Assembly (NCBI GenBank): GCA_937879955.1 | Contig: CALFMK010000001.1 | Coordinates: forward strand, 5,461-69,460 | Length of the DNA stretch: 64,000 nucleotides | Origin: an uncultured bacterium | Lineage (GTDB): Bacteria > Patescibacteriota > Minisyncoccia > Phycocordibacterales > Phycocordibacteraceae | Direction of reading: 5' to 3' | Shown here: positions 1,601 through 64,000 of the stretch, piece by piece | Layout: every line of letters begins with the position of its first letter | How positions within the stretch are numbered: the first letter of the stretch is position 1 | Made by a program: the position numbers and the translations under genes | Notes under the pieces: model-generated | Databases searched by the model: none | Told to the model about the DNA's origin: nothing | The model's input: the letters and a program-made list of their open reading frames with translations, nothing else

Positions 1601-1830
1601 GTGTCTTGCCTCTGTCCGGGAACGTTTCGTGCTGGTTTATGCACAAGGAAGATTGGGTGAAGAGCCCGTATCATACGTAGGTCAACGCAGCCGAATGCAG
1701 TCGGAAGGATGCGGCGGGACGCGCTACGGCGCCCCCGAACGCGGTCCGAAGTGGAGCGAAAACCCTGCCAGCGTCCGAAGCCAAGGCTGACTTATAAATG
1801 TGCCGTGTAACCTACGGGATTACCTACCAT

Positions 1831-4719: not shown

Positions 4720-4767
4720 TAGCTGGCACAAAGGCTGACTTACAAGAAGCGTTAACACTCGCGAACT

Positions 4768-5802
4768 ATGCCCATCAACAAAGGTGCTGCTCCCGTGAAC
4801 ATTAACAACCGCAGGATCATCAACGGCGGAGACGCCGACGTGATGCAGCTCTACCCGATGAAGCACACGTTCGCGTGGGACGCGTACATGGCGGGTAACA
4901 GCAACCACTGGCTTCCGACGGAGATCAGCATGCAGCGCGACATCGAGCAGTGGAAGTCGACGACCGTGCTCTCGGACGACGAGCGCAGGGCGTTCGAGAC
5001 CGTGCTCGGATTCTTCACCACGGCCGATTCGATCGCCGCGAACAACATCGTGCTCGCCATCTACAAGCACATCACGAGCCCGGAGTGCCGCATGTACCTC
5101 CTGCGCCAGGGATACGAGGAGGCGATCCATACGCACGCGTACCAGTACATCGTGGAGTCGCTCGGCATGGACGAGTCGAAAATCTTCAACATGTACCGCG
5201 AGGTGGAGGCGATCTACAACAAGGACAACATGGTGCTGCGCCTCAACGAGGGCATCTTCTCGCCGGACTTCAAGACCGGCACGCTCGAGAACGACCAGCT
5301 CTTCGTGGAGAACCTCTGCGTCTTCTCGCTCATCATGGAAGGCATCTTCTTCTACAGCTCGTTCGCCGTCATGTTCGGCTTCCAGCGCCAGAACAAGCTC
5401 ACGGGCGCCGCGGAGCAGATCCAGTACATCATGCGCGACGAGTCCCAGCACCTTAACTTCGGCGTGAACCTGATTAACACGATCAAGGAGGAGCAGCCTG
5501 AGGTGTGGACCCCTGAGTTCCAGGAGCGCATCATCGGCATGGTGAAGCGCGCGGTGCAGCTCGAGTACGAGTTCGCTACCACGGTCTTCCCGAAGGGCAT
5601 CTTCGGCATGAACGCAGCAGGCTTCAAGCAGTACATCGAGCATATCGCCGACCGCCGTCTCGCGTCGGTAGGCCTTCCGGCGCAGTACAACGTCGAGAAC
5701 CCGTTCCCGTGGATGGGCGAGGCGGTGGACCTGAACAAGGAGAAGAATTTCTTCGAGACCCGCGTGACCGAGTACAAGACGGGCGGGCAGTTGAGCTGGT
5801 AA
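4768..5802 (+). CDS. nrdB: Ribonucleotide reductase beta subunit (class I R2, di-metal/tyrosyl radical protein).
   Basis: 344 aa with the R2 ferritin-like fold motifs (EEAIHTHAY...; EGIFFYSSF; DESQHLNFG). It sits directly downstream of nrdA. Confidence 0.93.
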   Translation: MPINKGAAPVNINNRRIINGGDADVMQLYPMKHTFAWDAYMAGNSNHWLPTEISMQRDIEQWKSTTVLSDDERRAFETVLGFFTTADSIAANNIVLAIYKHITSPECRMYLLRQGYEEAIHTHAYQYIVESLGMDESKIFNMYREVEAIYNKDNMVLRLNEGIFSPDFKTGTLENDQLFVENLCVFSLIMEGIFFYSSFAVMFGFQRQNKLTGAAEQIQYIMRDESQHLNFGVNLINTIKEEQPEVWTPEFQERIIGMVKRAVQLEYEFATTVFPKGIFGMNAAGFKQYIEHIADRRLASVGLPAQYNVENPFPWMGEAVDLNKEKNFFETRVTEYKTGGQLSW

Positions 5803-5863: not shown

Positions 5864-8257
5864 ATGAAACACGTGGGAAGGCTTCTGGTACTGCTTTTTG
5901 GTGCTTTTATCTTTCCGGGGATGGTCTCTGCAGCCACCTACTACGTTGATGCGACTCTCGGTAATAATTCGAATAACGGCACTGCCGCTAGTACCTCGTG
6001 GCAGACGCTCGCCAAAGTAAACGGCACTACATTCTTGGCTGGCGATAATATCCTCTTTAAGAAGGGAGAGACGTTTACTGGTGTGCTCGTAGCAGGCCAG
6101 AGTGGCACTAATGGGAATCCAATCACGTACGGCTCATATGGGGAGGGTGCGCGCCCAATTATTAATGCCGCTGGAAATAATCATGGATTCGACATCCGGA
6201 CAGGTAAGTCTTATATCAATGTAGCTGGCCTCGAAGTTCGAAACGCGACCTTGAACCAGTTTCTTCTGTTCGCTAATAGTTCGAATATATCGCACGTGTC
6301 CATCCAGGACTCGATAGCTGTAGGGGGAACGAGCGGATTCAATTTACAGGGACCAGGAACGTTTCTAGACATAACAATAAGTAGCAGTACCGCAAGCGGG
6401 TACGCGGGAGGTTCTGCGGTTGGTGTTCGCCTTGGTTCAGGAACCACTTTTGATGGAATTACTCTCGATGGAGTATCGGCGGCTTCTGGAAGTGGGTATC
6501 AGGGCTTCAGTACTGGATCGGGAACCTATTCAAATATTTCGATACTGAACTCATCGTTCACTGGGCATCCATCAAACGGTATTGCGTTTCTGTCTGCAAC
6601 GACGACTAACGTGGTCATTAGGGATACTGTAGCGAGCTTGAATGGAGGAAGTGGGATTTATTTCTTTGGTGTGAAGAGTGGAGTTGAGATTGATAACGTA
6701 ACAGCAAACTCAAATACCCAAAACGGAATAGGATTTGAAGCTGGTGCCATGAATCACATATCAATCGAAGACTCCGAGTTCAACAATAATGGACTTAATG
6801 GAATCGCACTTCTCGGAAGCGGAACCGGAACGTCAACAATCGTTTCTCGGTCGATTGCGTCTGGTAATGATAATGACGGTTTTAATATCTCTGGAAACTG
6901 GCAGAATGTCGTATTCGAGGAAGCGATCGCAAGTGATAATGGTGTAGATGGTATTGGCTCGAACGGAGACGGCTTCAGCTTTCACAACTCGAGCACCGGT
7001 GTAATTAGGAATAGCCAGGCACATAATAATTGGAAGTCAGCCGTAACAAACGTGAATACATCGAGCACGACGGTATATAACAACCTCTTTTCGCATGACA
7101 CCAACGGAACGAATGCCCTCATCACATTCCTAGACAGCGGAAGCCATGCTGCTTACAACAATGTGCTCTATAGCCCTGCACAGGTGGGGTATGGATTGGT
7201 CGCGAATGGTACAACGACACTCATAGCGAGGAATAATATTATTCAAGGTTTTCAGTACGGCGTATCGAAGGGGACGAATGCCTTCTTGGTAGAAGATTAC
7301 AATGACGTTTATGGAGCCAGTACGGCCTCCTACATTGGGCTTACTGGAGGTGTACATTCTATCTCTGTGAATCCAAAGTTTGTCGACGCTGAGGATGATG
7401 ATTTCCGACTACTTCAGTCCTCTCTTGCTATAAATGCAGGTACTACGACGCCCTATGTAACCGATTACCTCGGAAATCCACGCGTCGGCATTCCGGATAT
7501 GGGTGCATATGAGTATCAGGGAATACCTGATATAACAGCACCTTCTATCTACATAATTGCACCAGTGGATCCGGCTACGATATCTGGAACTGTAATTATT
7601 ACCGCATCAGCGACGGATGCTATCGGCGTAGAAGAAGTCGAATTTTTTCTAGATGGAGTATCGCTCGGGGATGATGCATCTGATCCTTATTCATTTTCAT
7701 GGAACTCATCTGCAGTTCCCGATGGCGTATACTCACTTCTCGCAGTTGCACATGATGCTGAAGGGAATTATGCCACCTCCTCTCCTGTCTCCGTCACGGT
7801 CTCGAATGTAATTCAGGAAGCGAGCCATCGCTCTGGTAAGTCCGGTCAGAGTGTCGTACGCACTATCTCTCCGCTCGCAGATTCTGTATTAAATGAAGGA
7901 GAAGCAAAGATATCATCAATAAATCGGCTCATACTCGATAATCGCGCACTTTTTATGCTTGCGCAGGAAAAGGGAATAGTAGTTCCTGAATTCATACTCA
8001 ATATGCTCGATCTCCCTTCGGGCTCGACCATTTCGATATTCTTTAATCGTCCTCTTGCGCTTGGAGCAACTGGCCCAGATGTCACTGCACTCCAGCAGAT
8101 TCTTAAGGATAAGGGCTTCTATGTTTATCAGGAGATAACCGGCTACTACGGACAAGCCACACTACAAGCTGTTGCTGACTACCAGAAGTCACTTGGGCTC
8201 GAATCTCTCGGGTATGTAGGTCCAGCAACAAGGGAAGCCTTGAATGCTGGGATTTGA
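5864..8257 (+). CDS. Exported right-handed beta-helix (pectate-lyase-like repeat) protein with an Ig-like domain and a C-terminal peptidoglycan-binding (PG_binding_1-like) domain.
   Basis: Signal peptide MKHVGRLLVLLFGAFIFPGMVSA. Many parallel beta-helix repeats (NxxGIxxxG, NNNGLNGIAL, SGNDNDGFNISGN...), then an Ig-like segment. The C-terminus reads ...ALGATGPDVTALQQILKDKGFYVYQEITGYYGQATLQAVADYQKSLGL. The gene is about 45% GC in a 66% GC genome. There is no SD. A TATACT sits 7 nt upstream of the ATG. Confidence 0.8.
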   Translation: MKHVGRLLVLLFGAFIFPGMVSAATYYVDATLGNNSNNGTAASTSWQTLAKVNGTTFLAGDNILFKKGETFTGVLVAGQSGTNGNPITYGSYGEGARPIINAAGNNHGFDIRTGKSYINVAGLEVRNATLNQFLLFANSSNISHVSIQDSIAVGGTSGFNLQGPGTFLDITISSSTASGYAGGSAVGVRLGSGTTFDGITLDGVSAASGSGYQGFSTGSGTYSNISILNSSFTGHPSNGIAFLSATTTNVVIRDTVASLNGGSGIYFFGVKSGVEIDNVTANSNTQNGIGFEAGAMNHISIEDSEFNNNGLNGIALLGSGTGTSTIVSRSIASGNDNDGFNISGNWQNVVFEEAIASDNGVDGIGSNGDGFSFHNSSTGVIRNSQAHNNWKSAVTNVNTSSTTVYNNLFSHDTNGTNALITFLDSGSHAAYNNVLYSPAQVGYGLVANGTTTLIARNNIIQGFQYGVSKGTNAFLVEDYNDVYGASTASYIGLTGGVHSISVNPKFVDAEDDDFRLLQSSLAINAGTTTPYVTDYLGNPRVGIPDMGAYEYQGIPDITAPSIYIIAPVDPATISGTVIITASATDAIGVEEVEFFLDGVSLGDDASDPYSFSWNSSAVPDGVYSLLAVAHDAEGNYATSSPVSVTVSNVIQEASHRSGKSGQSVVRTISPLADSVLNEGEAKISSINRLILDNRALFMLAQEKGIVVPEFILNMLDLPSGSTISIFFNRPLALGATGPDVTALQQILKDKGFYVYQEITGYYGQATLQAVADYQKSLGLESLGYVGPATREALNAGI

Positions 8258-8284
8258 ATTCTTCTAGAGGACGGCGATAATAAA

Positions 8285-8500
8285 CTATATATAACGTTTA
8301 ATTATCTCAACACTGCCCAAGGTCAGTATGTCTCTACCGACCACTCCGTTCTTACGGGTACTAATTACTTTAATAGCTTCTCGTTCGAGAAAGTACATTA
8401 CCGCAGTGTTCAGAATTAAATTCCTATCCCTCTCCTCTGTAACTAGTAAATCAATCGTTTCAAGGACATCCTCTGGAATATCAAGATTAATTTTAGACAC
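8285..8500 (-). CDS. Small ribbon-helix-helix (CopG/antitoxin-like) DNA-binding protein, tentative.
   Basis: 71 aa. The N-terminal strand-helix-helix pattern is INLDIPEDVLETIDLLVTEE...RNLILNTAVMYFLERE. It has a GTG start and no SD, and lies in the low-GC island. Confidence 0.35.
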   Translation of the reverse strand: MSKINLDIPEDVLETIDLLVTEERDRNLILNTAVMYFLEREAIKVISTRKNGVVGRDILTLGSVEIIKRYI

Positions 8501-8523
8501 TGTAAATTCTAAAAATTAAAGCT

Positions 8524-9003
8524 CTAGCTGAACTTCAGCATTTTCGTTTCTAAATTTTCCAGCAATATCTGATAACGCGCATCGAGAGGATTTAACTTGT
8601 AACGTATTTGACGTATAACGATTTTGTATAATTTCCCAACTTGCCCTCGCGTTTCTATACGAATACGGAAGGCTGCTGTCATTCCTGTTGGTATCTTGCA
8701 GTAAACTATCGTGCCTAGGGCAACTTGAGTTATGTTCTCTCCTCGGCATGAAATATCAGTTTTTAATATTGAACTCTGAGCCGTTCCTTCAATCTGATAT
8801 ACAAAACCGGTTGGCTTCTTGCCCGAGGCAACCGAAAGAGGAACGTATAGATCTTTCCGAGGAGCAGTTATGTTAATGATAAATATAAAATTCCCGATTA
8901 CGCGGTCAGGTCCATTAGGAATTCGCGTTCTCCTAAGATTCTCTTCAGTGTCTTTAATATCGACCAAGACATCTTTCTCCGGTGGAATGATTGGTTTATC
9001 CAT
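8524..9003 (-). CDS. Hypothetical protein (159 aa) in the low-GC island.
   Basis: An intact ORF immediately upstream of the RHH ORF on the same strand. It has no recognisable motifs and AT-rich codon usage like the island. Confidence 0.4.
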   Translation of the reverse strand: MDKPIIPPEKDVLVDIKDTEENLRRTRIPNGPDRVIGNFIFIINITAPRKDLYVPLSVASGKKPTGFVYQIEGTAQSSILKTDISCRGENITQVALGTIVYCKIPTGMTAAFRIRIETRGQVGKLYKIVIRQIRYKLNPLDARYQILLENLETKMLKFS

Positions 9004-12897: not shown

Positions 12898-14979
12898 CTA
12901 TGCGCGCTCGATAGTAGCGAGAATCTCCTCGATCTCAGCGAGCCCCGCCGGCTTCGTGAGATGGTGGTCGAACCCGGCCTTCCGGGCCTTCTGTATGTCG
13001 GATTCCTGGCCGTAGCCGGTGAGTGCGACGAGCGTCGCGGCGAACCCATCAGCGCGGAGCGCCGTCGCGACCTCGTAGCCCTCCATGTCCGGCAGGCCGA
13101 TGTCGAGCAGGATCACGTCAGGACGGAACGCGGGCGCGCGGGCGATAGCCTCCTCGCCGGTATATGCGGTTTCGGTACGGTTCCCGCGGAGCGTGAGGAG
13201 CTTCGCGAGCGCGTCGGCCGCGGCGCGGTTGTCGTCCACGACGAGGATGCGGAACCCGTCACGCGCCTTTGGCGCTGCTACGGCCCGTGCCCGCACCCCG
13301 ACGGCTCCCTCCTGCGGGAGCGGGATGCGGACGGTGAACCGGCTCCCGTGTCCGGGCCCGTCGCTCTCGGCCTCGATCGTGCCGTCGTGCATCTCCACCA
13401 GGTTCTTGGTAAGCGAGAGGCCGATGCCGAGACCTGCGTGCATCTTGCCGGGCTGCTCGATCTGGAAGAACGGTTCGAAGACGTGCGCAAGGAGCGCGGC
13501 GTCCATGCCGATGCCGGTGTCCGTCACCGTGACGACGGCCTCGGTCCCGTCCGTGCGTGCCACGAGCTCGATACGGCCTCCGGGCTCGGTGTACTTCGCC
13601 GCGTTGTTGAGGAGGTTCACGAACACCTGCTCGAGACGCACGGGATCGGCCTCGAGGCGGATCGCCTCGTCCGGCATGTCGATCGAGAGCTCGTGCTTGA
13701 GGGACGCCATGAGCGGCGCCACGGTACGCTGGCTCCTTGCGAGCACGGTCTGGAGGTCGATGTGCTCCTTCTGGAGGGAGAGCTTCTCGCGGGTGATGCG
13801 CGAGATGTCGAGCAGGTCGTCGAGGAGATGCCGCATGGTCTTCAGGTGGTCGGTCATGCCTTCGGCGAGCTCGCTCGAGCGAGCGGCATCCGGCCGCTCG
13901 AGCTTCATGATCTCGAGCGAGGACATGAGCGGGGCGAGCGGGTTGCGCAGCTCGTGCGCGAGGGTGGCGATGAAGCGGCTCTTCGCCTCGTCCTCACGGC
14001 GGATCCGCTCCACGGCGTCCTCGAGCCTGCGCACGTTGTCGCGCAGGACGTTCGCGGTGTCCTTGCGCTCCTCCGCGATGGAGACGAGCACGAGGAATAT
14101 GAGGGAGAGCACGATCACGAATATCTCGGTCTGCAGGAGGTCGTATCCGAGCGTCCCTGTACCGGACGCGAGGCTGAGGAACGCGGTGCCGCCGAGCGCG
14201 AGCGCGGCGTTCAGGAAGAGCGCGAGCGTCATGAAGCGCGGGCCGATGCGCAGCGCGATCCAGAGGAACGGGATGAGGATAAGGTATACGAGCGGCACCT
14301 GCGCGATCTCGCGGTATGGGGTCCAGTACAGGAGGAGGCCGGTCCCGACGACGGCCGCTATCGCGACCCAGGCCTCGACGAGCTCGCCCTTCGTGCGCTG
14401 GAACCTGAAGCGCGGCAGCCACTTGATGAGGAGCGGCGTCACGACGAGCATGGAGAGGATGTGCCCGATCCACCACGGGATGAAGGTACCCATGAGGCCG
14501 CGGGGCATGGCGCGCTCGGCCAGGGTGAAGGTGAGGGTTCCGAGCGCCGGGATGAGGATGGTGACGAAGAGCGCGACGAACACGAACATGAGGGTGTCGG
14601 GAGCCTTCGAGAAGGTGTTGCGGTATCCGAGCTTCCGGAGGAGCCAGGTGCCCACGCTTGCCTGTATGGCGTTCGCCGCCGCAAGCCCGAGCGCCACGAA
14701 CAGCACGCTCCCGTTCAGGAGCTGGTGCGCGAGAGCTGCCAGGAATACCGCAGGCCAGAGCGCGATGCCGCCGAGGAGGAGTCCGCCGAGCGCGATGCCG
14801 GATGCCGGCCAGATGAGGGCCGGGGCGGTCGGGACGGAGGAATAGATATGCGAGAAGACCTGGGCGCAGAACAGGTACGCGCAGAACAGCAGCGCCATGT
14901 AGAGGAGCGACCGTCCGGAATAGGGGAAGCGAGGCATAGACGGGTGGATGGCGTTCTCCCTAGGATACATTCTTTTCAT
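12898..14979 (-). CDS. Hybrid sensor histidine kinase: N-terminal polytopic MASE1-like membrane domain, then HisKA, HATPase and a C-terminal receiver.
   Basis: About 8 TM helices (IWPASGIALGGLLLGG...). The H-box is ATLAHELRNPLAP. The N, G1 and G2 boxes are present (DTGIGM..., GLGIGLSL). The C-terminal receiver reads ILVVDDN...DVILLDIGLPDMEG. Confidence 0.9.
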   Translation of the reverse strand: MKRMYPRENAIHPSMPRFPYSGRSLLYMALLFCAYLFCAQVFSHIYSSVPTAPALIWPASGIALGGLLLGGIALWPAVFLAALAHQLLNGSVLFVALGLAAANAIQASVGTWLLRKLGYRNTFSKAPDTLMFVFVALFVTILIPALGTLTFTLAERAMPRGLMGTFIPWWIGHILSMLVVTPLLIKWLPRFRFQRTKGELVEAWVAIAAVVGTGLLLYWTPYREIAQVPLVYLILIPFLWIALRIGPRFMTLALFLNAALALGGTAFLSLASGTGTLGYDLLQTEIFVIVLSLIFLVLVSIAEERKDTANVLRDNVRRLEDAVERIRREDEAKSRFIATLAHELRNPLAPLMSSLEIMKLERPDAARSSELAEGMTDHLKTMRHLLDDLLDISRITREKLSLQKEHIDLQTVLARSQRTVAPLMASLKHELSIDMPDEAIRLEADPVRLEQVFVNLLNNAAKYTEPGGRIELVARTDGTEAVVTVTDTGIGMDAALLAHVFEPFFQIEQPGKMHAGLGIGLSLTKNLVEMHDGTIEAESDGPGHGSRFTVRIPLPQEGAVGVRARAVAAPKARDGFRILVVDDNRAAADALAKLLTLRGNRTETAYTGEEAIARAPAFRPDVILLDIGLPDMEGYEVATALRADGFAATLVALTGYGQESDIQKARKAGFDHHLTKPAGLAEIEEILATIERA

Positions 14980-26274: not shown

Positions 26275-26829
26275 ATGGCCTCATTCGATTTCAAGACCCT
26301 AGACACCAGCATCAAGGAGACCGAGGAGTGGCTCGTCCGCGAGCTCTCGACGGTGCGCACCGGCCGCGCCACCCCGGCGATCCTCGACACGATAAAGCCC
26401 GAGGTGTACGGCAGCCGCACCCCGATCAACCAGGTCGCGGCCGTCACCATCGAGGACGCGCGCACGCTGCGCATCGTCCCGTGGGACAAGTCCCTCACGA
26501 AGGTGATCGAGCGCGCGATCCAGGACGCCGACCTCGGCATGGGCGTGGGCAGCGACGACCAGGGGCTCCGCGTCTCGTTCCCTGAGCTCACGGCGGAGCG
26601 CCGCACCATGCTCCTCAAGGTAGCCAACGACAAGCTCGAGCAGGCGCGCATCACGCTGCGCGGCCATCGCACCGATACGCTCAAGGCGCTCGACGCTGCG
26701 GAGAAGGAGGGCGGCATGGGAAAGGACGAGCTCGCGCGCCTGAAGGACGAGGTCCAGAAGAAGGTGGATGCCGCCACCGAGGCGCTCGGCGCGCTCGCGA
26801 AGAAGAAGGAAGCAGAGATCGCTGCCTAG
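26275..26829 (+). CDS. frr: Ribosome recycling factor.
   Basis: ...TGRATPAILDTIKPEVYGSRTPINQVAAVTIEDARTLRIVPWDKS... is a typical RRF. The start was trimmed to MASFDFKTL. The ORF track starts at 26257. Confidence 0.9.
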   Translation: MASFDFKTLDTSIKETEEWLVRELSTVRTGRATPAILDTIKPEVYGSRTPINQVAAVTIEDARTLRIVPWDKSLTKVIERAIQDADLGMGVGSDDQGLRVSFPELTAERRTMLLKVANDKLEQARITLRGHRTDTLKALDAAEKEGGMGKDELARLKDEVQKKVDAATEALGALAKKKEAEIAA

Positions 26830-26832
26830 GCC

Positions 26833-27915
26833 ATGACGATTCTTATCTTCGTACTCGTTCTCGTCGCGCTCATCGTGGTGCACGAGTTCGGGCATTTCCT
26901 CGTCGCGAAGTGGTCCGGGATGCGCGTGGACGAGTTCGGCCTCGGCTATCCGCCGAAGGCCTGGGGCAAGAAGATCGGCGAGACCGAGTACACCCTCAAC
27001 TGGCTGCCGTTCGGCGGCTTCGTGAAGATATTCGGCGAGGACCCGGAGCCAGGGGAGAAGCCCGCGCCGCGCTCGTTCGGCTCGCGCCCGCGCGTCCTGC
27101 AGGCCGCGGTGCTCGTCGCAGGCATCGCCATGAACCTGTTGTTCGCGTACGTCCTTCTCACGGCGACCCTTTTCGGCGGCACGACCCGCGCGCTCACCGA
27201 CGAGGAGGCGAAGACCGCGCCTGACGCCGTGCTTGCCGTGGCGAGCGTGCTGCCCGAGTCTCCGGCCGCGGACGCTGGCCTCAGGCCTGGCGACTTCATC
27301 CTCTCTGCGACCGCGGGCGAGGACACCTACGAAGGCGCCGACGCGAAGGCGTTCACGTCCTTCGTCGCGGAGCACGGTGCCGAGGAGATCGTCCTCGACG
27401 TGAAGGGAGAGGAGGTCGTCGTGCGTCCTGAGGCGGGCGTCATCGCGGCGGATCCGGAACGCCTCGCGCTCGGCGTCGGGCTCACTGCCGTGGGCACGGC
27501 ATCGATGCCGTGGTATAGGGCGCCTATCGAGGGCGCGGTGCTCACCTGGGAGCTCACGAAGGAGACCGCCGTCGCGCTCGTGCATTTCTTCACCGGCATA
27601 TTCACGCTCTCCGCGGACCTCTCGCAGGTAGCGGGCCCGGTGGGCATCGCGGGTGCGGTCGGCGACGCGTCGAACAACGGCCTCGCGTCCCTCGCCACCA
27701 TCACGGCACTCATCTCCATCAACCTCGCGCTCATCAACCTGCTGCCAATCCCGGCGCTCGACGGCGGACGCCTCCTCTTCGTGATCATCGAGGCGATAAC
27801 CCGCAGGCCTATCAAGCCGTCCTTCGCGAACGCGGTGAACGGCATCGGGTTCTTCCTCCTCGTCGCGCTCATGCTCGTCGTGACCGCGAGCGACATCTTC
27901 AAGATCGTCGGGTAA
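26833..27915 (+). CDS. rseP: RIP metalloprotease RseP (site-2 protease, M50 family, with PDZ domain).
   Basis: The HExxH motif is HEFGHFLVAKWSG. A PDZ segment follows, and the C-terminal motif is NLLPIPALDGG. Confidence 0.9.
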   Translation: MTILIFVLVLVALIVVHEFGHFLVAKWSGMRVDEFGLGYPPKAWGKKIGETEYTLNWLPFGGFVKIFGEDPEPGEKPAPRSFGSRPRVLQAAVLVAGIAMNLLFAYVLLTATLFGGTTRALTDEEAKTAPDAVLAVASVLPESPAADAGLRPGDFILSATAGEDTYEGADAKAFTSFVAEHGAEEIVLDVKGEEVVVRPEAGVIAADPERLALGVGLTAVGTASMPWYRAPIEGAVLTWELTKETAVALVHFFTGIFTLSADLSQVAGPVGIAGAVGDASNNGLASLATITALISINLALINLLPIPALDGGRLLFVIIEAITRRPIKPSFANAVNGIGFFLLVALMLVVTASDIFKIVG

Positions 27916-27931
27916 AGGAAATGGCCGCTGG

Positions 27932-28207
27932 TTAGGCGGCCATGGGGAGTTCGTGATGCGCTTCGTCGATGCGCTCTTCTCCGTCAAAATCTGGGTCCTC
28001 GAACGGGCAGTACGGATTCAGGTGCTTCTTCCGTACGAGCACGTACCCGTAGCGTCCGTTCTTGCGAATCGTTACGGTGCGCTCATACCTATCCAGGGGA
28101 AAGATCGGATGGTTGCAGCGATCGCAGCGGTGCGTCAGTCTGGCGACGTGCGTGCTGCACGTGGGCTTCGGCATGTGAGCTTCCTTTCCGAGGACGTTGT
28201 AGCACAT
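27932..28207 (-). CDS. Small Cys/His-rich hypothetical protein.
   Basis: The C-terminal 91 aa of the ORF is protein-like (MCYNVLGKEAHMPKPTCSTHVARLTHRCDRCNHP...). The upstream part of the ORF is Arg/Pro-rich junk that overlaps another gene. Confidence 0.4.
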   Translation of the reverse strand: MCYNVLGKEAHMPKPTCSTHVARLTHRCDRCNHPIFPLDRYERTVTIRKNGRYGYVLVRKKHLNPYCPFEDPDFDGEERIDEAHHELPMAA

Positions 28208-40221: not shown

Positions 40222-40296
40222 TGGTGACCTCACGGGGAATCGAACCCCGATTTGATCCGTGAGAGGGATCTGTCCTAGCCGTTAGACGATGAGGCC
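40222..40296 (-). tRNA. tRNA-Glu (anticodon CUC), with an encoded CCA end.
   Basis: The minus-strand sequence is GGCCTCATCGTCTAACGGCTAGGACAGATCCCTCTCACGGATCAAATCGGGGTTCGATTCCCCGTGAGGTCACCA. The D-loop is Glu-type (TCTAACGGCTAGGAC), the anticodon loop is CTCTCAC and the T-loop is TTCGATT. Confidence 0.85.
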
Positions 40297-41686: not shown

Positions 41687-41758
41687 GGTGGGTTGATGAT
41701 ACCGGCAACAGCCAGGAAAAGAAAAAGGCCCCGACATGATGTCGGGGCCAATGCTGCC

Positions 41759-42766
41759 TCATATAGGGGCGGAAAGTGCGTAGTCTCCGGTCCTCGTGGT
41801 GCGAAGCGCGCTGAGGCCGTGGCTGTGATAGAGCGCCCTCCATTCGGCATACTCCGCCGCGCTCAGTCCCGGATACTTTGCCAGGACGTAGGGAAGCGGG
41901 ATGCCGCCCTTCTCGACGAGCAGGACGATCACCGCCTTGCGGCGTATGACCCATCGCGTGTCCTGCGCTTCGGACGGGAGGTCCTCGGCGCAGATCTTCA
42001 TTCCCAGGGGGCCCGTGATCGTCTTCTTCGGGTCGAAGCAGACCGTCGGGTTCGCGCTCGGATCGAGCCTGAGCTCGCCGAAGTAGTAGCCGCGGCCCCA
42101 GACGGTCCTGAGCGGAGGGTTACCCGGGAAGAACGCCCCGAGAGCCTTCCGCATCCTGCACGCATGCACGTCGATTATCTTCGGATCGACATGCGTGCCT
42201 TCCTCGTGCCTCGCATCCAGCAGCATCTGCCGCGTATGGATGATCCCGGACTTCGAGATGAGGGTCGTGAGCAGGCGGGCCTCGTCAGGGGTGATGCGCG
42301 CGCGCTGGCCCCCGATGAAGACCTCGTCGAGCCCGTTGATGACGATCGGAACGCCTTCGTGCACGGACTCGAGCTTGGTCGCGACGGATTGCAGCTCGGC
42401 TCCGTCTTCAAGCGCGAGCATGTAGCCCCTCCTGGGATGCGTGCTGATGACCTGCCTTGCGGCGGGGTGGCACGCGGCGAGCCGCATGCGGATATGGTGG
42501 ATATGGGTGTCGATCACCTTATCGAGCGGAGGATGCTCCTTGTTGCCGTCGATGACGCGCTTGAGGCTCGCCTTCGACTGCAGATGGCCACGCCGATCCA
42601 TCATGTAGAGGAAGAGCTTCTGCTCCGAAGGCGTGAACTTGGCGGAGATCTCGTTTACTGAGACCTGGCCGCTCGAGGCGATCTTGAACACCAGCTCTCC
42701 GTACGTAAGCTGGATAGGGTCTCGCTGGGGAGCCGCGTGGGTTCCCGTACGTTCGACGACGCTCAT
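41759..42766 (-). CDS. Receiver-less transcription regulator with two tandem CtrA/OmpR-type winged-helix DNA-binding domains fused to a C-terminal DUF1153-like HTH domain.
   Basis: Domain 1 contains ...DKVIDTHIHHIRMRL...VISTHPRRGYML. Domain 2 contains ...DPKIIDVHACRMRKALG...LRTVWGRGYYF, which closely matches the CtrA recognition helix/wing ([13 protein letters not shown]...[10 protein letters not shown]). The C-terminus DTRWVIRRKAVIVLLVEKGGIPLPYVLAKYPGLSAAEYAEWRALYHSHGLSALRTTR matches the DUF1153 pattern. The start was set at the ATG with an AGGAG SD 9 nt upstream. The ORF-track TTG at 42820 lies inside the promoter/5'UTR. Confidence 0.75.
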   Translation of the reverse strand: MSVVERTGTHAAPQRDPIQLTYGELVFKIASSGQVSVNEISAKFTPSEQKLFLYMMDRRGHLQSKASLKRVIDGNKEHPPLDKVIDTHIHHIRMRLAACHPAARQVISTHPRRGYMLALEDGAELQSVATKLESVHEGVPIVINGLDEVFIGGQRARITPDEARLLTTLISKSGIIHTRQMLLDARHEEGTHVDPKIIDVHACRMRKALGAFFPGNPPLRTVWGRGYYFGELRLDPSANPTVCFDPKKTITGPLGMKICAEDLPSEAQDTRWVIRRKAVIVLLVEKGGIPLPYVLAKYPGLSAAEYAEWRALYHSHGLSALRTTRTGDYALSAPI

Positions 42767-42808
42767 GTACTTGCTCCTAGATACCTTGGTTTCAACGAAT
42801 CCAGAGCC

Positions 42809-42837
42809 AGTAAATGACAAGAAGGAGGCCGTGTCAA
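42809..42837 (-). promoter_or_regulatory. Sigma70-type promoter of the double-wHTH/DUF1153 gene.
   Basis: On the minus strand, TTGACA, a 17-nt spacer, then TTTACT. This sits about 45 nt upstream of the SD/ATG. Confidence 0.45.
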
Positions 42838-42844
42838 TAAATAG

Positions 42845-42885
42845 GACAATGGAAAGAGCCGCCCTTCATGGAAGGGCGGCTCTGC
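42845..42885 (-). terminator. Terminator after the first ctrA paralog.
   Basis: AGAGCCGCCCTTC-ATG-GAAGGGCGGCTCT, followed on the minus strand by TTTCCATTGTCCTATTTATT. Confidence 0.55.
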
Positions 42886-42912
42886 TTGAAGCACGCACTG
42901 CTGATACTGCTC

Positions 42913-43683
42913 TCAGGCCATCGGCGCCGGACTCGGGGCGCCGGAGCCGTTCGTGAAGGCCGGTCTCGCGGCCTCGGCGATCGGAAGATCTTCTGCCATC
43001 ACGCGCTCGTTCGGGTCGCGCAGCACGTAGCCGCGGCCCCAGACGGTCTCGATGTGGTGCCTGCCGCTGTTACCGGAAGCGAGCTTCCTGCGCAGCTTGC
43101 AGACGAACACGTCCACGATCTTGAGTTCCGGCTCGTCCATGCCGCCGTACAGGTGGTTCAGGAACATCTCCTTGGTGAGGGTGGTGCCCTTGCGCAAGGA
43201 GAGGAGCTCCAGTATCTGGTACTCCTTGCCGGTCAGGTGCACGTGCTTCCCGCCGATCTCGACGGTCTTCGCGTCGAGGTTCACGACGATCTCGCCGGTC
43301 TTGATGACCGACTGGGCATGACCCCGCGAGCGCCGCACGATCGCGTGGATGCGCGCGATCATCTCGTCCTTGTGGAACGGCTTGGTCATGTAGTCGTCGG
43401 CGCCGCCCGCGAAGGTCTTCACCTTCATGTCGATCTCGGCGGATCGCGCCAGGATCATGATCGGCGTGTTGACCTTCGCGACCCTGATGGTGCGAAGCAC
43501 GTCGATCGCTGACATGTCGAGCAGGTCGAGACTGAGTACGATCATGTCGTAGTCATATATCTTTGCCAGATCGACGCCCTCCTCGCCCAGGTCGGTCACG
43601 TAGACGTTGAAGCCTTCCGACTTCAGCATCAGCTCGATCGTCTGGGCGGTAGCGCTGTCGTCTTCGATCAGGAGAATACGCAC
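42913..43683 (-). CDS. CtrA-family response regulator paralog with the phospho-acceptor Asp replaced by Ser, plus a C-terminal extension.
   Basis: 256 aa. [28 protein letters not shown]...[20 protein letters not shown]...[53 protein letters not shown]...[17 protein letters not shown] matches CtrA along its whole length. The receiver position that aligns with CtrA D51 is Ser ([16 protein letters not shown]). It has a GTG start with a GAGGAG SD. Confidence 0.88.
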
Positions 43684-43736
43684 GCTTAGCTCTCCTCTGT
43701 GTCTGTTTGATTATCGGGAACGCATGTCTGGGATTG

Positions 43737-43764
43737 ATGATAGTGATTATCCGGGCATTGTCAA
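43737..43764 (-). promoter_or_regulatory. Sigma70-type promoter of the first ctrA paralog.
   Basis: On the minus strand, TTTTGACAAT, a 16-nt spacer, then TATCAT. A leader of about 60 nt with the SD follows. Confidence 0.5.
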
Positions 43765-43788
43765 AAGTAGCGAATGCTCCTGTCCCTC

Positions 43789-43826
43789 AGGTAAGAAATT
43801 GGCCGCCCTTCGTGAGAAGGACGGCC
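43789..43826 (-). terminator. Terminator after the second ctrA gene.
   Basis: GGCCGTCCTTC-TCACG-AAGGGCGGCC, followed on the minus strand by AATTTCTTACC. Confidence 0.5.
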
Positions 43827-43851
43827 AGGTATCTTCGGATGGGTGATGCTA

Positions 43852-44547
43852 CTACGCCGCGGATACCATCTCGTTCTCGTCGCGCAGCACGTAGCCGCGG
43901 CCCCAGACGGTATCGATGTGATGCTTGCCGCCGTTGCCCGAGCCGAGCTTCTTGCGAAGCTTGCAGATAAAGACGTCCACGATCTTGATCTCGGGAACAT
44001 CGATGCCGCCGTACAGGTGATTCAAGAACATCTCCTTGGAAAGGGCGGTGCCCTTGCGTAGCGACAGGAGCTCGAGCATCTGGTACTCCTTGCCGGTCAG
44101 GTGCACGCGCGTGCCGCCGACCTCGACGGTCTTCATGTCGAGGTTCACGACGATCTCGCCGGTCTTGATGACCGAATGAACGAGACCCTTCGAGCGCCGT
44201 ACGATCGCATAGATGCGAGCCACGAGCTCGTCCTTATGGAACGGCTTGGTCATGTAGTCGTCGGCGCCGAGGTTCAGCGCCTTCACCTTCGTCTCGATGC
44301 GGGTGTCGCCGGTCGAGATCATGACGAGCGTCTCGATCTTCTCGGCGCGGAGCGTCCGGAGAACGTCGAGGCCGTACATGTCAGGCAGGTTAAGGTCGAG
44401 CAGGATCAGGTCGTAGTCGTAGGACCTCGCGAGATCGAGACCCTCCTCGCCCAGGTCGGTCGTCTGGACGCTGAAACCTTCCGACATCAGCATCAGCTCC
44501 ACCGTTTGGGCAGTGGCGCCGTCATCTTCGATCTGGAGAACGCGCAT
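43852..44547 (-). CDS. ctrA: CtrA-family response regulator (canonical receiver with phospho-Asp).
   Basis: 231 aa. [25 protein letters not shown]...[24 protein letters not shown]...[20 protein letters not shown]...[53 protein letters not shown]...[17 protein letters not shown]. The AGGAGG SD sits 8 nt upstream. The start was trimmed from the longer ORF. Confidence 0.88.
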
Positions 44548-44596
44548 TATGAAATCCTCCTGTTTCCGTTGTCTGGATGGAACGTGTCTGATTTTG

Positions 44597-44624
44597 ATAC
44601 TACGACTACTCCATGGATTGTCAA
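44597..44624 (-). promoter_or_regulatory. Sigma70-type promoter of the second ctrA gene.
   Basis: On the minus strand, TTTGACAAT, a 16-nt spacer, then TAGTAT. This is the same architecture and the same -35-extended motif as the ctrA paralog promoter. Confidence 0.5.
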
Positions 44625-44644
44625 ACGAGCGCACGTGAGGAATA

Positions 44645-44675
44645 GGGAAAGGCGGCCATGCGTGGCCGCCTTTGC
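44645..44675 (-). terminator. Hairpin terminator after the 44675..44974 gene.
   Basis: AAAGGCGGCCA-TGCG-TGGCCGCCTTT. Confidence 0.45.
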
Positions 44676-44974
44676 TAGGGAGGTGGGAAGAGCGGCAGCT
44701 GTCGTGCATCCTGCGCCGCTCGCGCTTCGGCGCGCTCACGCTTCTTGCTGTTTCTCGAACGCGTCGCGCCCGCTTTCTTGCCGTACCGCTGACGGAGTCT
44801 CGCGACGAGGCCTTCGGGCGTATCGGCATCGGGCCAGCAGGTGCTGTTCAGGAACTCGTTCGCCTTTTGTACGAGCTCCTTATTCGTGAATCGGTTAAGG
44901 TCCTTCGGGCCGTGCCGCCTCCGGAAGCGCAGGTTCCGCTCGAATGCGTCGAGACGCTCTTCAGGGGACAGCAT
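44675..44974 (-). CDS. Hypothetical basic protein (99 aa).
   Basis: Intact ORF. It overlaps the upstream small ORF by 14 nt. No recognisable motif. Confidence 0.4.
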
Positions 44975-45176
44975 GCCGTCTCCTTTTCGGGGCGCGTATG
45001 ATGCCGCGATTCCGGAGTTCGGCGAGGACTTCCGCCACGCGTCTCCTTATATCGGGAGCATGGCGGATATTCTTCCCTTCGATTGCCTTGATCGCCGCGA
45101 GCGGCCACCCGACGCTCTTGTCGGAACGCTGCTTCACGCGGATAGTCGCCTCGGTAAGCTCTGCAATGCTTAACAT
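44961..45176 (-). CDS. Small hypothetical protein (71 aa), possibly HTH/excisionase-like.
   Basis: MLSIAELTEATIRVKQRSDKSVGWPLAAIKAIEG... loosely resembles an AlpA/Xis-type HTH. This is a weak resemblance. Confidence 0.3.
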   Translation of the reverse strand: MLSIAELTEATIRVKQRSDKSVGWPLAAIKAIEGKNIRHAPDIRRRVAEVLAELRNRGIIRAPKRRRHAVP

Positions 45177-62648: not shown

Positions 62649-63014
62649 ATGCCTTGGCCACGAGTGGGGGACTGGTTGGAGAGGATCAGTAAATCGAACG
62701 CGCTCTATCCGCTCCTCATAGCGCTATGCCTCTCCGTCGCGTTCGCCGGTACGGTCATAGCATTCGTACCGAACGTTCTCATCCAGGTCATCGTCTGTAT
62801 ACCAGTGCTGATGATCGTATTCCAGATCGTCCGGAGCTTCGAGTACTTCTCCAAGAACAACCCGGACATGCTCCGGACCGAGACGCATGTGATCCAGCAG
62901 CGCGTCCTCGAGATGATGGGGGACGAGTCCGGCGTCGTGCACGCGACTGCGGCCGACCTGGTAGCCATAACGAATCCTGCGAATACCCAGGATAGAATCG
63001 AAAACCATGGCTAA
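62649..63014 (+). CDS. Membrane protein (121 aa).
   Basis: Two TM helices (LYPLLIALCLSVAFAGTVIAFV; IQVIVCIPVLMIVFQIV). Confidence 0.55.
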   Translation: MPWPRVGDWLERISKSNALYPLLIALCLSVAFAGTVIAFVPNVLIQVIVCIPVLMIVFQIVRSFEYFSKNNPDMLRTETHVIQQRVLEMMGDESGVVHATAADLVAITNPANTQDRIENHG

Positions 63015-63294
63015 CATCTATCTTATCGCCGTAAAGAATGATGATTCCTTCAATGTTAAGGAATTCCATAAATTTGTTAAGGAAAAACTCTATCCTGAGC
63101 ATGTGGGCGGTTGGTGGCATTACGTTTCTGGACCAACCTATCTCGTTAAGTCGGAAACACTTGATGCTAAGGGAATATCCGAAATCATCACCCAGTTCAC
63201 TGGCAAGCAGAGTCATCTTGTTACCAAGATCGATCTAGAAGATATCGAAGGAATGTTGCCGGCTCGCGCATGGGACTGGCTCGGACTCTACTAA
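63007..63294 (+). CDS. Hypothetical protein in the terminal low-GC island (95 aa).
   Basis: Intact ORF at about 40% GC. No motifs recognised. Confidence 0.45.
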   Translation: MANIYLIAVKNDDSFNVKEFHKFVKEKLYPEHVGGWWHYVSGPTYLVKSETLDAKGISEIITQFTGKQSHLVTKIDLEDIEGMLPARAWDWLGLY

Positions 63295-63512
63295 TGGAGC
63301 ACATCACACTTCAAGAGTATGAAGATACTGATGGAACGAGGATGGAGCTCGGTATCCAGTATGACGAAGCTACCTACCAGTTCATCGTTTCCGGAACGCC
63401 AATTAATGGCAATGGGGCGTATGAGGCAGGGAAGACGCCCATTTTCGCATCCTTCCCGACCCTCGAAGAAGCAAGGATGTTCGTAGAAAAGAGTTTCACT
63501 AAGATCTCCTAG
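63295..63512 (+). CDS. Hypothetical protein in the terminal low-GC island (72 aa).
   Basis: Its ATG directly follows the upstream stop (TAATGG). No motifs recognised. Confidence 0.4.
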
Positions 63513-63571
63513 GAATCTTCGGTTTATTTTTTCTCCAGGATTCCTTTATCCGGGGCTGGTAGGGTTCGGAT

Positions 63572-64000
63572 ATGGCAATGGTAGAAGAAAATCTGATACT
63601 TTCCCTCTTGAAGAAAGAGTTTCCGAAGGCGCCCGAACAGGTATTGAGACAATGGCTTGCTCCAGCTGTTAAGAAGGACGGTTGGCCACCGACCGGACTT
63701 CATTGGATCGGTGTATTGGGGAAAAGGGATCTGGATTTCTGGAAAAAGAAGGAATGGTCCCTTAAGGACGTTAACCTCGAAGAAGCTTCCTGGGATTACG
63801 ATACTAGGTACGCGGCAGAAAAGGTGCTCGAAGGGTTTGTTGCATCTCAAGAATCTGAAGTCCTCTTCTCTGATTCTCATGAGAAGCAGAAGGTCATACG
63901 AGCACTTAAGCACCTTTCAGTCGAAGGAAGCTTCTTCGAGCCGATAACCGCATTTCTCGTAGAAAACGAATCTGGTGGCTACTCGCTCGTAGACGGATTC
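63572..64000 (+). CDS. Hypothetical protein, 5' fragment running off the window. Its reading frame stays open to the window end.
   Basis: A 143-codon open frame (MAMVEENLILSLLKKEFPKAPEQVLRQWLAPAVKKDGWPP...) with no stop before 64000. It is low GC. I prefer it over the overlapping minus-strand ORF 63524..63913, which has low-complexity, junk-like composition. Confidence 0.4.
   Translation, partial: MAMVEENLILSLLKKEFPKAPEQVLRQWLAPAVKKDGWPPTGLHWIGVLGKRDLDFWKKKEWSLKDVNLEEASWDYDTRYAAEKVLEGFVASQESEVLFSDSHEKQKVIRALKHLSVEGSFFEPITAFLVENESGGYSLVDGF

Follow-up and report, generated by a model that had tools for sequence, protein, structure and literature searches.

CtrA- and SciP-derived regulators in a Patescibacteria genome: tandem ctrA genes beside a double-winged-helix SciP fusion

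CtrA and SciP count as hallmarks of cell cycle control in the Alphaproteobacteria. The DNA analyzed here, a 64-kb stretch of contig CALFMK010000001.1 from an uncultured bacterium, referred to as a whole as the window, encodes descendants of both regulators in a genome that belongs to the Patescibacteria (candidate phyla radiation [CPR]; Paceibacterota/Parcubacteria) and not to the Alphaproteobacteria. Two tandem ctrA genes, one of which encodes a receiver with a degenerate active site, lie next to a gene for a receiver-less protein in which two winged helix-turn-helix (wHTH) domains are fused to a SciP-like domain. Sequence comparisons indicate that this module was acquired horizontally and that its CtrA part is closest to that of the Caulobacterales. 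We consider it probable, if well short of certain, that the module forms a domesticated transcription circuit that is derived from CtrA and SciP and is mostly independent of phosphorylation, with the fusion protein acting as a tethered antagonist. The component families are known; the host phylum, a CtrA with a pseudo-receiver, and the double-wHTH-SciP architecture are new. An initial annotation of this stretch had suggested that the system was undescribed. In line with this, full-text literature searches returned no relevant paper for CtrA with Patescibacteria, candidate phyla radiation, Parcubacteria, or related names, and "DUF1153," the family name of the SciP-like domain, appeared in no paper of these searches. 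The window makes up ~10% of the genome, and genome-level content was judged from it alone. The parts of the module that carry the argument are as follows (types A and B are defined below).

43852..44547, minus strand: ctrA copy 2 (type A, 231 aa), with D51, T79, and K101 intact and a C-terminal -AA
42913..43683, minus strand: ctrA copy 1 (type B, 256 aa), with a degenerate receiver site (D51S, N53D, P55L, S79A) and a 25-aa C-terminal tail
41759..42766, minus strand: fusion gene (335 aa), encoding wHTH1, wHTH2, and a SciP-like domain but no receiver
42416..42715, minus strand: wHTH1 of the fusion (aa 18 to 117), a divergent OmpR-family winged helix
42080..42379, minus strand: wHTH2 of the fusion (aa 130 to 229), a DNA-binding domain of apparent CtrA derivation
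41780..42028, minus strand: SciP-like DUF1153 domain of the fusion (aa 247 to 329), matching PF06627

Two CtrA copies in a Patescibacteria genome

The host was identified from its DnaB relatives, the gene neighborhood, and synteny with other assemblies. Among the nearest 120 DnaB proteins (77 to 99% identity), every named one was assigned to Candidatus Paceibacterota, Parcubacteria, Minisyncoccia, or Kaiserbacteria. Besides DnaB, the window encodes MraW, two penicillin-binding proteins, MurF, a short TruB, YqeY, RadC, and CysS. The contig that contains it is 591 kb long, a size typical of CPR genomes. By its DnaB relatives and synteny, the organism falls outside the Alphaproteobacteria, the group in which CtrA occurs, and because the genome is that of a member of the Patescibacteria, no resident alphaproteobacterial CtrA circuit is expected in it. 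The alphaproteobacterial setting with a single-copy CtrA that the initial annotation had taken as its background was thus wrong.

Both regulators contain the Pfam domains Response_reg and Trans_reg_C. On the NCBIfam CtrA equivalog model NF045991 (cutoff, 350 bits), copy 1 scored 379.9 bits and copy 2 scored 359.2 bits. Since both pass this model and the next-best response regulator model reached only ~150 bits for either protein, they belong to the CtrA subfamily, as had been predicted, and are not generic OmpR-type regulators. The two copies are 72% identical to each other; copy 1 is 85% identical to Caulobacter CtrA, and copy 2 is up to 77.8% identical to alphaproteobacterial CtrAs. The DNA-binding domain is 81 to 84% identical to that of Caulobacter CtrA, and copy 1 keeps the CtrA recognition helix along with T168 and T170. 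Regulators from three other CPR loci with the module (L086, L087, and L090; see below) are 77 to 84% identical to copy 1, and all but one pass the CtrA cutoff: three scored 389.9, 386.4, and 394.9 bits, and the upstream copy of L087 scored only 269.5 bits. The proteins share with the CtrA of Caulobacter a receiver (REC) followed by an OmpR-type wHTH domain. They differ from it in their Patescibacteria host, in their occurrence in up to two tandem copies, and in the active site of one of the two types.

The initial annotation had called the copy adjacent to the fusion gene canonical. When the six CPR CtrAs were aligned with 147 nonidentical alphaproteobacterial CtrAs, it was this copy, copy 1, that was found to have Ser in place of Asp51, whereas the upstream copy 2 has kept D51. 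The active sites separate the six proteins into type B (copy 1, L086, L090, and the upstream copy of L087) and type A (copy 2 and the second copy of L087), with the following residues.

Residue 51: D in 147 of 147 alphaproteobacterial CtrAs; S or N in type B; D in type A
Residue 53: D in 0 of 147 alphaproteobacterial CtrAs; D in type B; N in type A
Residue 55: P in 147 of 147 alphaproteobacterial CtrAs; L in two and P in two of type B; P in type A
Residue 79: S or T in 147 of 147 alphaproteobacterial CtrAs; A, D, D, and G in type B; T in type A

Copy 1 has kept K101 beside S51 and A79. Type B was found at all four loci with readable regulator genes, and type A was found only in the two genomes with both ctrA copies and the fusion gene (the window and L087). 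Outside the replaced residues, the type B receiver is 87 to 91% identical to that of Caulobacter in copy 1, L086, and L090 and only 57% identical in the upstream copy of L087; the CtrAs of Caulobacter and Rhizobium are 82 to 88% identical. The shared pair of replacements, D51N/S and N53D, speaks for common descent of type B within the CPR, and copy 1, L086, and L090 formed a clade with 75% bootstrap support in a neighbor-joining tree.

Atypical response regulators of the OmpR family are known that have a degenerate receiver and act independently of phosphorylation. Type B resembles them in that the receiver fold is kept and the DNA-binding domain is intact while the phospho-acceptor Asp and the Ser/Thr are replaced. 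Unlike them, its pseudo-receiver comes from CtrA after interphylum transfer, has a SciP fusion as a partner, and sometimes stands beside a canonical copy.

Several further features of the ctrA genes were noted. Their DNA-binding halves (43006-43305 and 43870-44169) are 87% identical as DNA, and their receiver halves are 74% identical. A 22-nt stretch encoding TVWGRGY is identical in the fusion gene (42086-42107) and in copy 1 (43027-43048). These similarities may reflect gene conversion or simply codon bias. The 25-aa tail of copy 1 (42913-42990), of which no counterpart was found in the alphaproteobacterial CtrAs compared, contains AEDLP, the pentapeptide that opens the SciP-like domain of the neighboring fusion (aa ~259 to 263); the tail may be what is left of a former CtrA-SciP fusion, or the match may be due to chance. 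Five of the six CPR CtrAs, copy 2 included, end in -AA (often -LAA), as do ~9 of 20 proteins of the fusion family; copy 1 (-PMA) and the fusion (-API) of the window do not. Such ends are reminiscent of ssrA tags and of the C-terminal signal for degradation of Caulobacter CtrA; by analogy, they hint at regulated proteolysis.

The fusion protein and the recurrence of the module

As shown by promoter, ribosome-binding-site, and hairpin positions, the open reading frame (ORF) at 41759-42820 starts at the ATG at 42766, which gives a protein of 335 aa identical to a database entry (P0001). Its predicted architecture proved to be real: a Pfam scan of the full 353-aa ORF assigned Trans_reg_C twice (87.7 bits) and, at residues 265 to 347, DUF1153 (63.7 bits; gathering score, 23.5). 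An AlphaFold2 model built from a family alignment shows two winged-helix domains (aa 18 to 117 and 130 to 229) and a helical C-terminal domain (aa ~270 to 332), with a mean per-residue confidence (pLDDT) of 81; at a predicted template modeling score of 0.55, how the three domains are oriented toward one another in the model is not reliable. Searched against the PDB with Foldseek, the model matched OmpR/PhoB-type DNA-binding domains only, and the DUF1153 entries of the PDB (2jrt and 2oa4) match the C-terminal domain.

The two winged helices appear to differ in origin. The initial annotation had regarded both as CtrA-type domains that carry the CtrA recognition helix. For wHTH1, neither part of this claim holds: models of the VanR, RpaB, and MtrA type, not CtrA, match this domain in a relative (P0128), its columns are poorly conserved in the family alignment (A1), and it is best described as a divergent OmpR-type domain. 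For wHTH2 (best Pfam stretch, 171 to 247), the claim is borne out at the level of the family, where the consensus KIxDVxxCxLRKxL...TVWGRGY is the CtrA signature and CtrA was the top response regulator model for 8 of 10 fusion relatives, often by 30 to 50 bits. The CtrA derivation, which sequence comparison thus suggests for wHTH2 and not for wHTH1, is visible in the family and not in the window protein itself. The shared recognition helix likewise applies to both CtrA copies and only roughly to wHTH2, where KIIDVHACRMRKAL takes the place of the CtrA helix, so that the helices of both wHTH domains differ from that of CtrA.

The C-terminal domain aligns with stand-alone SciP over its full length, from the DLP and RWVIRRKA motifs through Y..LS..E..W to GLRTTR, and is ~40% identical to the SciP of Hyphomicrobiales. 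As in that group, where sciP lies 1 to 2 kb upstream of ctrA in many loci, it is encoded near ctrA. Unlike SciP, which is a free-standing protein of ~90 aa, it forms the C-terminal domain of a longer chain (335 aa) that also contains two winged helices; in addition, it has a characteristic YP(D/G)LS insertion and diverges rapidly between lineages. Across lineages, the fusion is 25 to 30% identical, compared with 77 to 84% for CtrA, and between L086 and L090 it is 44% identical, compared with 71% for TruB. The ratio of nonsynonymous to synonymous substitution (dN/dS) of the fusion gene against a near-identical copy (L001) is 0.23, close to the 0.20 of truB; the gene is under purifying selection and is functional.

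HMMER was run exhaustively against 1.84 billion representative proteins to find the fusion family and returned 72 proteins at E ≤ 1e-10. About 15 clusters of 305 to 340 aa align end to end with the window fusion at 21 to 28% identity, and the Pfam architecture was confirmed in all eight double-wHTH members scanned. Many more proteins, of 180 to 250 aa, have a single wHTH domain and DUF1153 (dozens of 50%-identity clusters). NCBI labels one of these as Patescibacteria (P0138 is among those noted), and two, at L171 (8001-8756) and L172 (1992-2612), have no ctrA within 8 kb; fusions of a CtrA-type DNA-binding domain to SciP may be much more widespread in the CPR than the full module. No double-wHTH-SciP fusion was found under an alphaproteobacterial label or in the fetched alphaproteobacterial ctrA loci. 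Searches of phages and plasmids and a scan of viral contigs returned single domains and no fusion. A metagenome scan was dominated by CtrA because of the shared TVWGRGY and returned alphaproteobacterial loci only, which were informative just for stand-alone sciP; CtrA also dominated a word-indexed profile search. Four other metagenomic proteins combine the domains differently. P0278 and P0279 (303 to 308 aa) are full REC-wHTH-SciP proteins with D51 intact, and P0276 and P0277 (288 to 298 aa) have the order SciP-(partial REC)-wHTH and may have arisen where a frameshift joined neighboring sciP and ctrA genes.

Co-occurrence of the three genes had been put forward as a check. CtrA and the fusion were found together at three further loci, at one of them with both ctrA copies. 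The gene orders of these loci, each of which is syntenic with the window, are as follows.

L086: RmuC, P-type ATPase, YqeY, 133-aa ORF, major facilitator superfamily transporter, CtrA, fusion, TruB
L090: RmuC, P-type ATPase, YqeY, CtrA, fusion, TruB
L087: RadC, YqeY, CtrA, CtrA, fusion, TruB, tRNA-Glu, MurF (the full triad)

At all four loci with a readable upstream gene (the window, L086, L087, and L090), the fusion gene directly adjoins ctrA within the yqeY-truB interval. L001, from an unrelated run, carries a 97%-identical segment from the fusion gene to truB; of the gene upstream of the fusion gene, the contig includes the 3' end only. Two relatives found via DnaB (L082 and L084) lack the module and have YqeY, two small ORFs, and TruB with no regulator between them.

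The regulators are of foreign, alphaproteobacterial origin, since copy 1 is 85% identical to the CtrA of Caulobacter in a CPR host. The sequences nearest to copy 1 come from Caulobacter, Phenylobacterium, and Alsobacter, and the two copies are 72 to 85% identical to Caulobacterales CtrA. The best 80 matches to copy 1 among 185,579 species-representative genomes had alphaproteobacterial, generic "proteobacterium," or unlabeled-metagenome titles, and none was labeled Patescibacteria. Judged by housekeeping genes, the window organism is closer to the module-free relatives (ATPase identity of 72 to 79%) than to L086, L090, and L087 (ATPase, 53 to 54%; MurF, 54%). Taken with the pattern of presence, these identities mean that the module either is older than the clade and was repeatedly lost or moved among CPR lineages into one site. 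Synonymous divergence dates neither the duplication nor the transfer: with G+C contents at third codon positions (GC3) of 0.8 to 0.9, it is unsaturated even between Caulobacter and Rhizobium. In the window, the GC content and GC3 of the module equal those of the neighboring genes, with no composition break. In L086 (6318-8165) and L090 (4986-6807), which have ~54% GC, GC3 is 0.80 to 0.82 for ctrA and 0.69 to 0.70 for the fusion gene, compared with 0.50 to 0.66 for the neighbors. The excess in ctrA is in line with its foreign origin, and this outlier status is unexpected for a module as old as the clade.

Proposed circuit and alternative explanations

Once the CckA phosphorelay has phosphorylated D51, CtrA binds TTAA-N7-TTAA through its C-terminal domain (PMC6847485). 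SciP binds DNA beside CtrA sites, at GCGAC-type motifs (PMC4287350), contacts CtrA, and represses CtrA-activated promoters (PMC4287350, PMC6847485). The module descends from alphaproteobacterial ctrA and sciP and has been kept at the yqeY-truB site by several lineages of this CPR clade. We propose that rewiring has probably made the circuit independent, for the most part, of the CckA-ChpT phosphorelay. Type B, which keeps a near-alphaproteobacterial DNA-binding domain and receiver surface, has lost D51 and S/T79 and is not switchable in the canonical way; it is therefore presumably governed by its level or by a partner protein. Type A, present only in some genomes, may have remained responsive to a kinase or a small phosphodonor. 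The sole histidine kinase of the window (12898-14979, minus strand) is a MASE1-HisKA-HATPase-REC hybrid that matches generic hybrid kinase models only and has no CckA assignment; it could serve as the phosphodonor for copy 2.

The fusion has no receiver and links SciP to two winged helices, one of them a CtrA-type DNA-binding domain; it thus resembles a preassembled complex of SciP with the DNA-binding domain of CtrA. By analogy with SciP, it would most likely occupy CtrA-type operators as a tethered antagonist or coregulator of both CtrAs. The adjacency of the genes and the REC-wHTH-SciP fusions described above are consistent with binding of CtrA by the SciP-like domain. In this respect the competing or decoy system envisaged in the initial annotation remains a reasonable reading, transferred to a CPR genome.

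A number of observations weigh against this explanation. A scan for CtrA boxes, which had been recommended as a check, found no TTAA-N7-TTAA in the window at either 0 or 1 mismatch (0.03 and 2 expected), and none was found at the CPR loci; as a control, a perfect box was present in only 15 of 170 fetched alphaproteobacterial loci. With no box in front of the ctrA genes, there is no sign that they are autoregulated via canonical boxes as in Caulobacter. No CckA-like kinase was found in the window, which at ~10% of the genome does not show that CckA and ChpT are absent genome-wide. The wHTH2 domain of the window fusion scored 59.9 bits for CtrA and 60.5 bits for PhoB, which is a tie, and Paracoccus PhoB scores equally well, so that this domain may no longer have the specificity of CtrA. 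The SciP-like domain reached 61 bits on the NCBIfam SciP equivalog model NF051866 (cutoff, 100); its relatives scored 59 to 100 bits, with P0133 alone reaching 100.2. The order of the type A and type B copies in the window differs from that in L087, and the neighbor-joining tree resolves the type B clade only and not the donor, the origin of type A, or the monophyly of the CPR CtrAs. The closest sampled relatives of the window organism lack the module, and its history can be read either as an ancient gain with losses or as lateral spread among CPR lineages.

In a first alternative view, the three proteins are independent, neofunctionalized regulators of separate CPR regulons such as division, pili, or competence. 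The fusion would then be a three-headed DNA-binding activator or repressor whose SciP-like HTH contacts DNA and not CtrA. Every gene comes with a sigma-70-like promoter and a terminator of its own, both wHTH domains differ from CtrA in their recognition helices, SciP itself binds DNA, the single-wHTH proteins with DUF1153 at L171 and L172 occur in CPR-like contexts away from ctrA, and the fusion evolves far faster than CtrA. Against separate regulons, the fusion gene adjoins ctrA at the same locus in four readable cases, and there are direct REC-wHTH-SciP fusions, a kind of fusion that would be expected if the proteins have a joint function. We regard independent regulators as rather unlikely but deserving of serious consideration.

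A second possibility is that the module is directed at a host. An epibiont of Caulobacterales-like hosts might use a CtrA that cannot be phosphorylated, together with a fusion that combines CtrA-site binding and SciP, to read, subvert, or synchronize with the host cell cycle; this requires that the proteins or their effects reach the host. A protein that must still fit partners in the host, for example, a dominant-negative one, could look like type B, whose receiver has stayed Caulobacter-like in three of four copies despite the lost phospho-acceptor. Also in favor of this view, Caulobacter, Phenylobacterium, and Alsobacter have the nearest CtrAs, evolution of the fusion partner is rapid, and the GC3 of ctrA stands out in those CPR genomes that have a lower GC content. 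Phages of Alphaproteobacteria tap into CtrA control through CtrA-binding sites and carry homologs of cell cycle regulators, such as the GcrA homolog of phiCbK (PMC9437464). Like these phages, the CPR organism would be a dependent entity with a captured part of the alphaproteobacterial cell cycle toolkit; unlike the phages, which have mainly sites or a GcrA homolog, it has a cellular genome with CtrA itself and a SciP derivative, and its host is a presumed one. The proteins have no signal peptide, no secretion gene lies beside the module, and the architecture is that of ordinary cytoplasmic transcription factors with housekeeping-type promoters. CtrA is about equally conserved among the Alphaproteobacteria, so that intrinsic constraint is sufficient to account for its conservation here. 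We consider this explanation improbable. If it were true, the module would be a host manipulation device and a genomic marker of host identity.

The initial annotation had also raised the possibility of a recently acquired mobile element at the tRNA-Glu gene, with an Xis-like small ORF. The tRNA-Glu gene (40222-40296) and the fusion gene are 1.5 kb apart, the regulators have small ORFs without annotation beside them, and the two closest sampled relatives lack the module. The tRNA gene is on the far side of truB, which separates it from the module, and tRNA-Glu(CTC) is native to this site, since it lies beside truB even in module-free L084 as well as in L087 and L090. No integrase, Xis, or phage family match was found, the small ORFs matched nothing in Pfam or PHROG, no direct repeats flank the module, and the fusion was found on no viral contig. 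The composition of the module equals that of its neighbors in the window, and the same site is occupied in lineages whose ATPases are only ~53% identical. A tRNA-targeting integrative element was therefore rejected, and a recent mobile element of any such kind is very improbable. The least tenable alternative, an assembly or binning artifact that joined an alphaproteobacterial fragment to a CPR contig, would account for the high identity of the CtrA copies to alphaproteobacterial proteins but is refuted by the joining of the module to CPR genes in five independent assemblies from different samples (the window, L086, L087, and L090 show CPR genes on either side, and L001 shows truB on its one readable side), by paralogs that have diverged from every sampled alphaproteobacterial sequence, by the restriction of the fusion to sequences without an alphaproteobacterial label, and by the lack of a composition break in the window.

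A domesticated circuit of the kind we favor would be of interest in several respects. The retention, duplication, fusion, and phosphosite loss of CtrA and SciP in a CPR genome of ~0.6 Mb amount to a natural experiment on a master regulator without its phosphorelay. Fusions of the CtrA DNA-binding domain to SciP add an independent line of evidence, from evolution, for the action of CtrA and SciP on DNA as a single complex. For gene regulation in these uncultivated bacteria, the module is a rare starting point that lends itself to tests, and since the donor lineage is identifiable, it may also point to their hosts.

Transcription signals and surrounding genes

The regulators are part of a cluster of five consecutive minus-strand ORFs at 41759-45176, namely, two small ORFs, the two response regulators, and the receiver-less fusion, and this layout was confirmed as initially annotated. 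In addition to the genes given above, the locus has the following features.

45244-45215, minus strand: promoter of the small-ORF pair, a strong sigma-70-like site (TTGACA-N18-TATAGT)
44961..45176, minus strand: 71-aa ORF, which opens a small unit of two genes ahead of the regulators; no match in Pfam or PHROG
44675..44974, minus strand: 99-aa ORF; no Pfam or PHROG match; hairpin and T-run downstream
44597..44624, minus strand: promoter-like site of ctrA copy 2 (TTGACA-N16-TAGTAT; 10 of 12 matches)
43800..43827, minus strand: terminator-like hairpin between the ctrA genes (12-pair stem, 8 G-C pairs, T-rich tail)
43737..43764, minus strand: promoter-like site of ctrA copy 1 (TTGACA-N16-TATCAT; 11 of 12 matches), paralogous, with its leader, to that of copy 2
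41727..41749, minus strand: terminator-like hairpin after the fusion gene (10-pair stem, 8 G-C pairs, followed by TTTTTCTTTT)

Near-consensus promoters (TTGACA-N16-18-TAnnnT) thus precede the small-ORF pair and each ctrA copy, and hairpins lie between genes. Five promoter-like sites were seen, compared with 0.9 expected by chance. The fusion gene is preceded by a weaker TTGACA-containing site that fell below the threshold of the promoter scan. The positions of the promoter, the ribosome-binding site (GGAGGA, 8 nt ahead of the ATG), and the hairpin place the real start of the 43852-44829 ORF at the ATG at 44547, which yields the 231-aa copy 2.

The leaders of both ctrA genes have TTTGACAAT and CAGACA elements in common. 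Two copies of CAGACA are found in each leader (44548-44600 for copy 2 and 43684-43740 for copy 1), between the -10 element and the ribosome-binding site, and CAGAC(A/G) elements are likewise found upstream of the type A ctrA copy of L087 and of the fusion gene of L090. CAGACA may be an operator or a leader element.

The last 14 nt of the 71-aa ORF overlap the start of the 99-aa ORF. The latter is weakly similar to the C terminus of a 181-aa ORF that occupies the corresponding place in the module-free relative L082 (33% identity over 87 aa; E, ~0.006 in a tiny database), which suggests that it is probably a native, fast-evolving CPR gene and not part of the acquired module.

Elsewhere in the window, two long minus-strand ORFs, at 1792-5643 (1,283 aa) and 26299-27987 (562 aa), had no Pfam match at E ≤ 1e-4. 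The GC content, which is ~64% for the genome, decreases to 46% in the final kilobase (63001-64000) and to 41 to 47% at 6000-9000. The latter region contains a plus-strand ORF (5864-8257; 797 aa) with beta-helix, Big_7, and peptidoglycan-binding domains and is probably a separately acquired island encoding a surface or cell wall protein.

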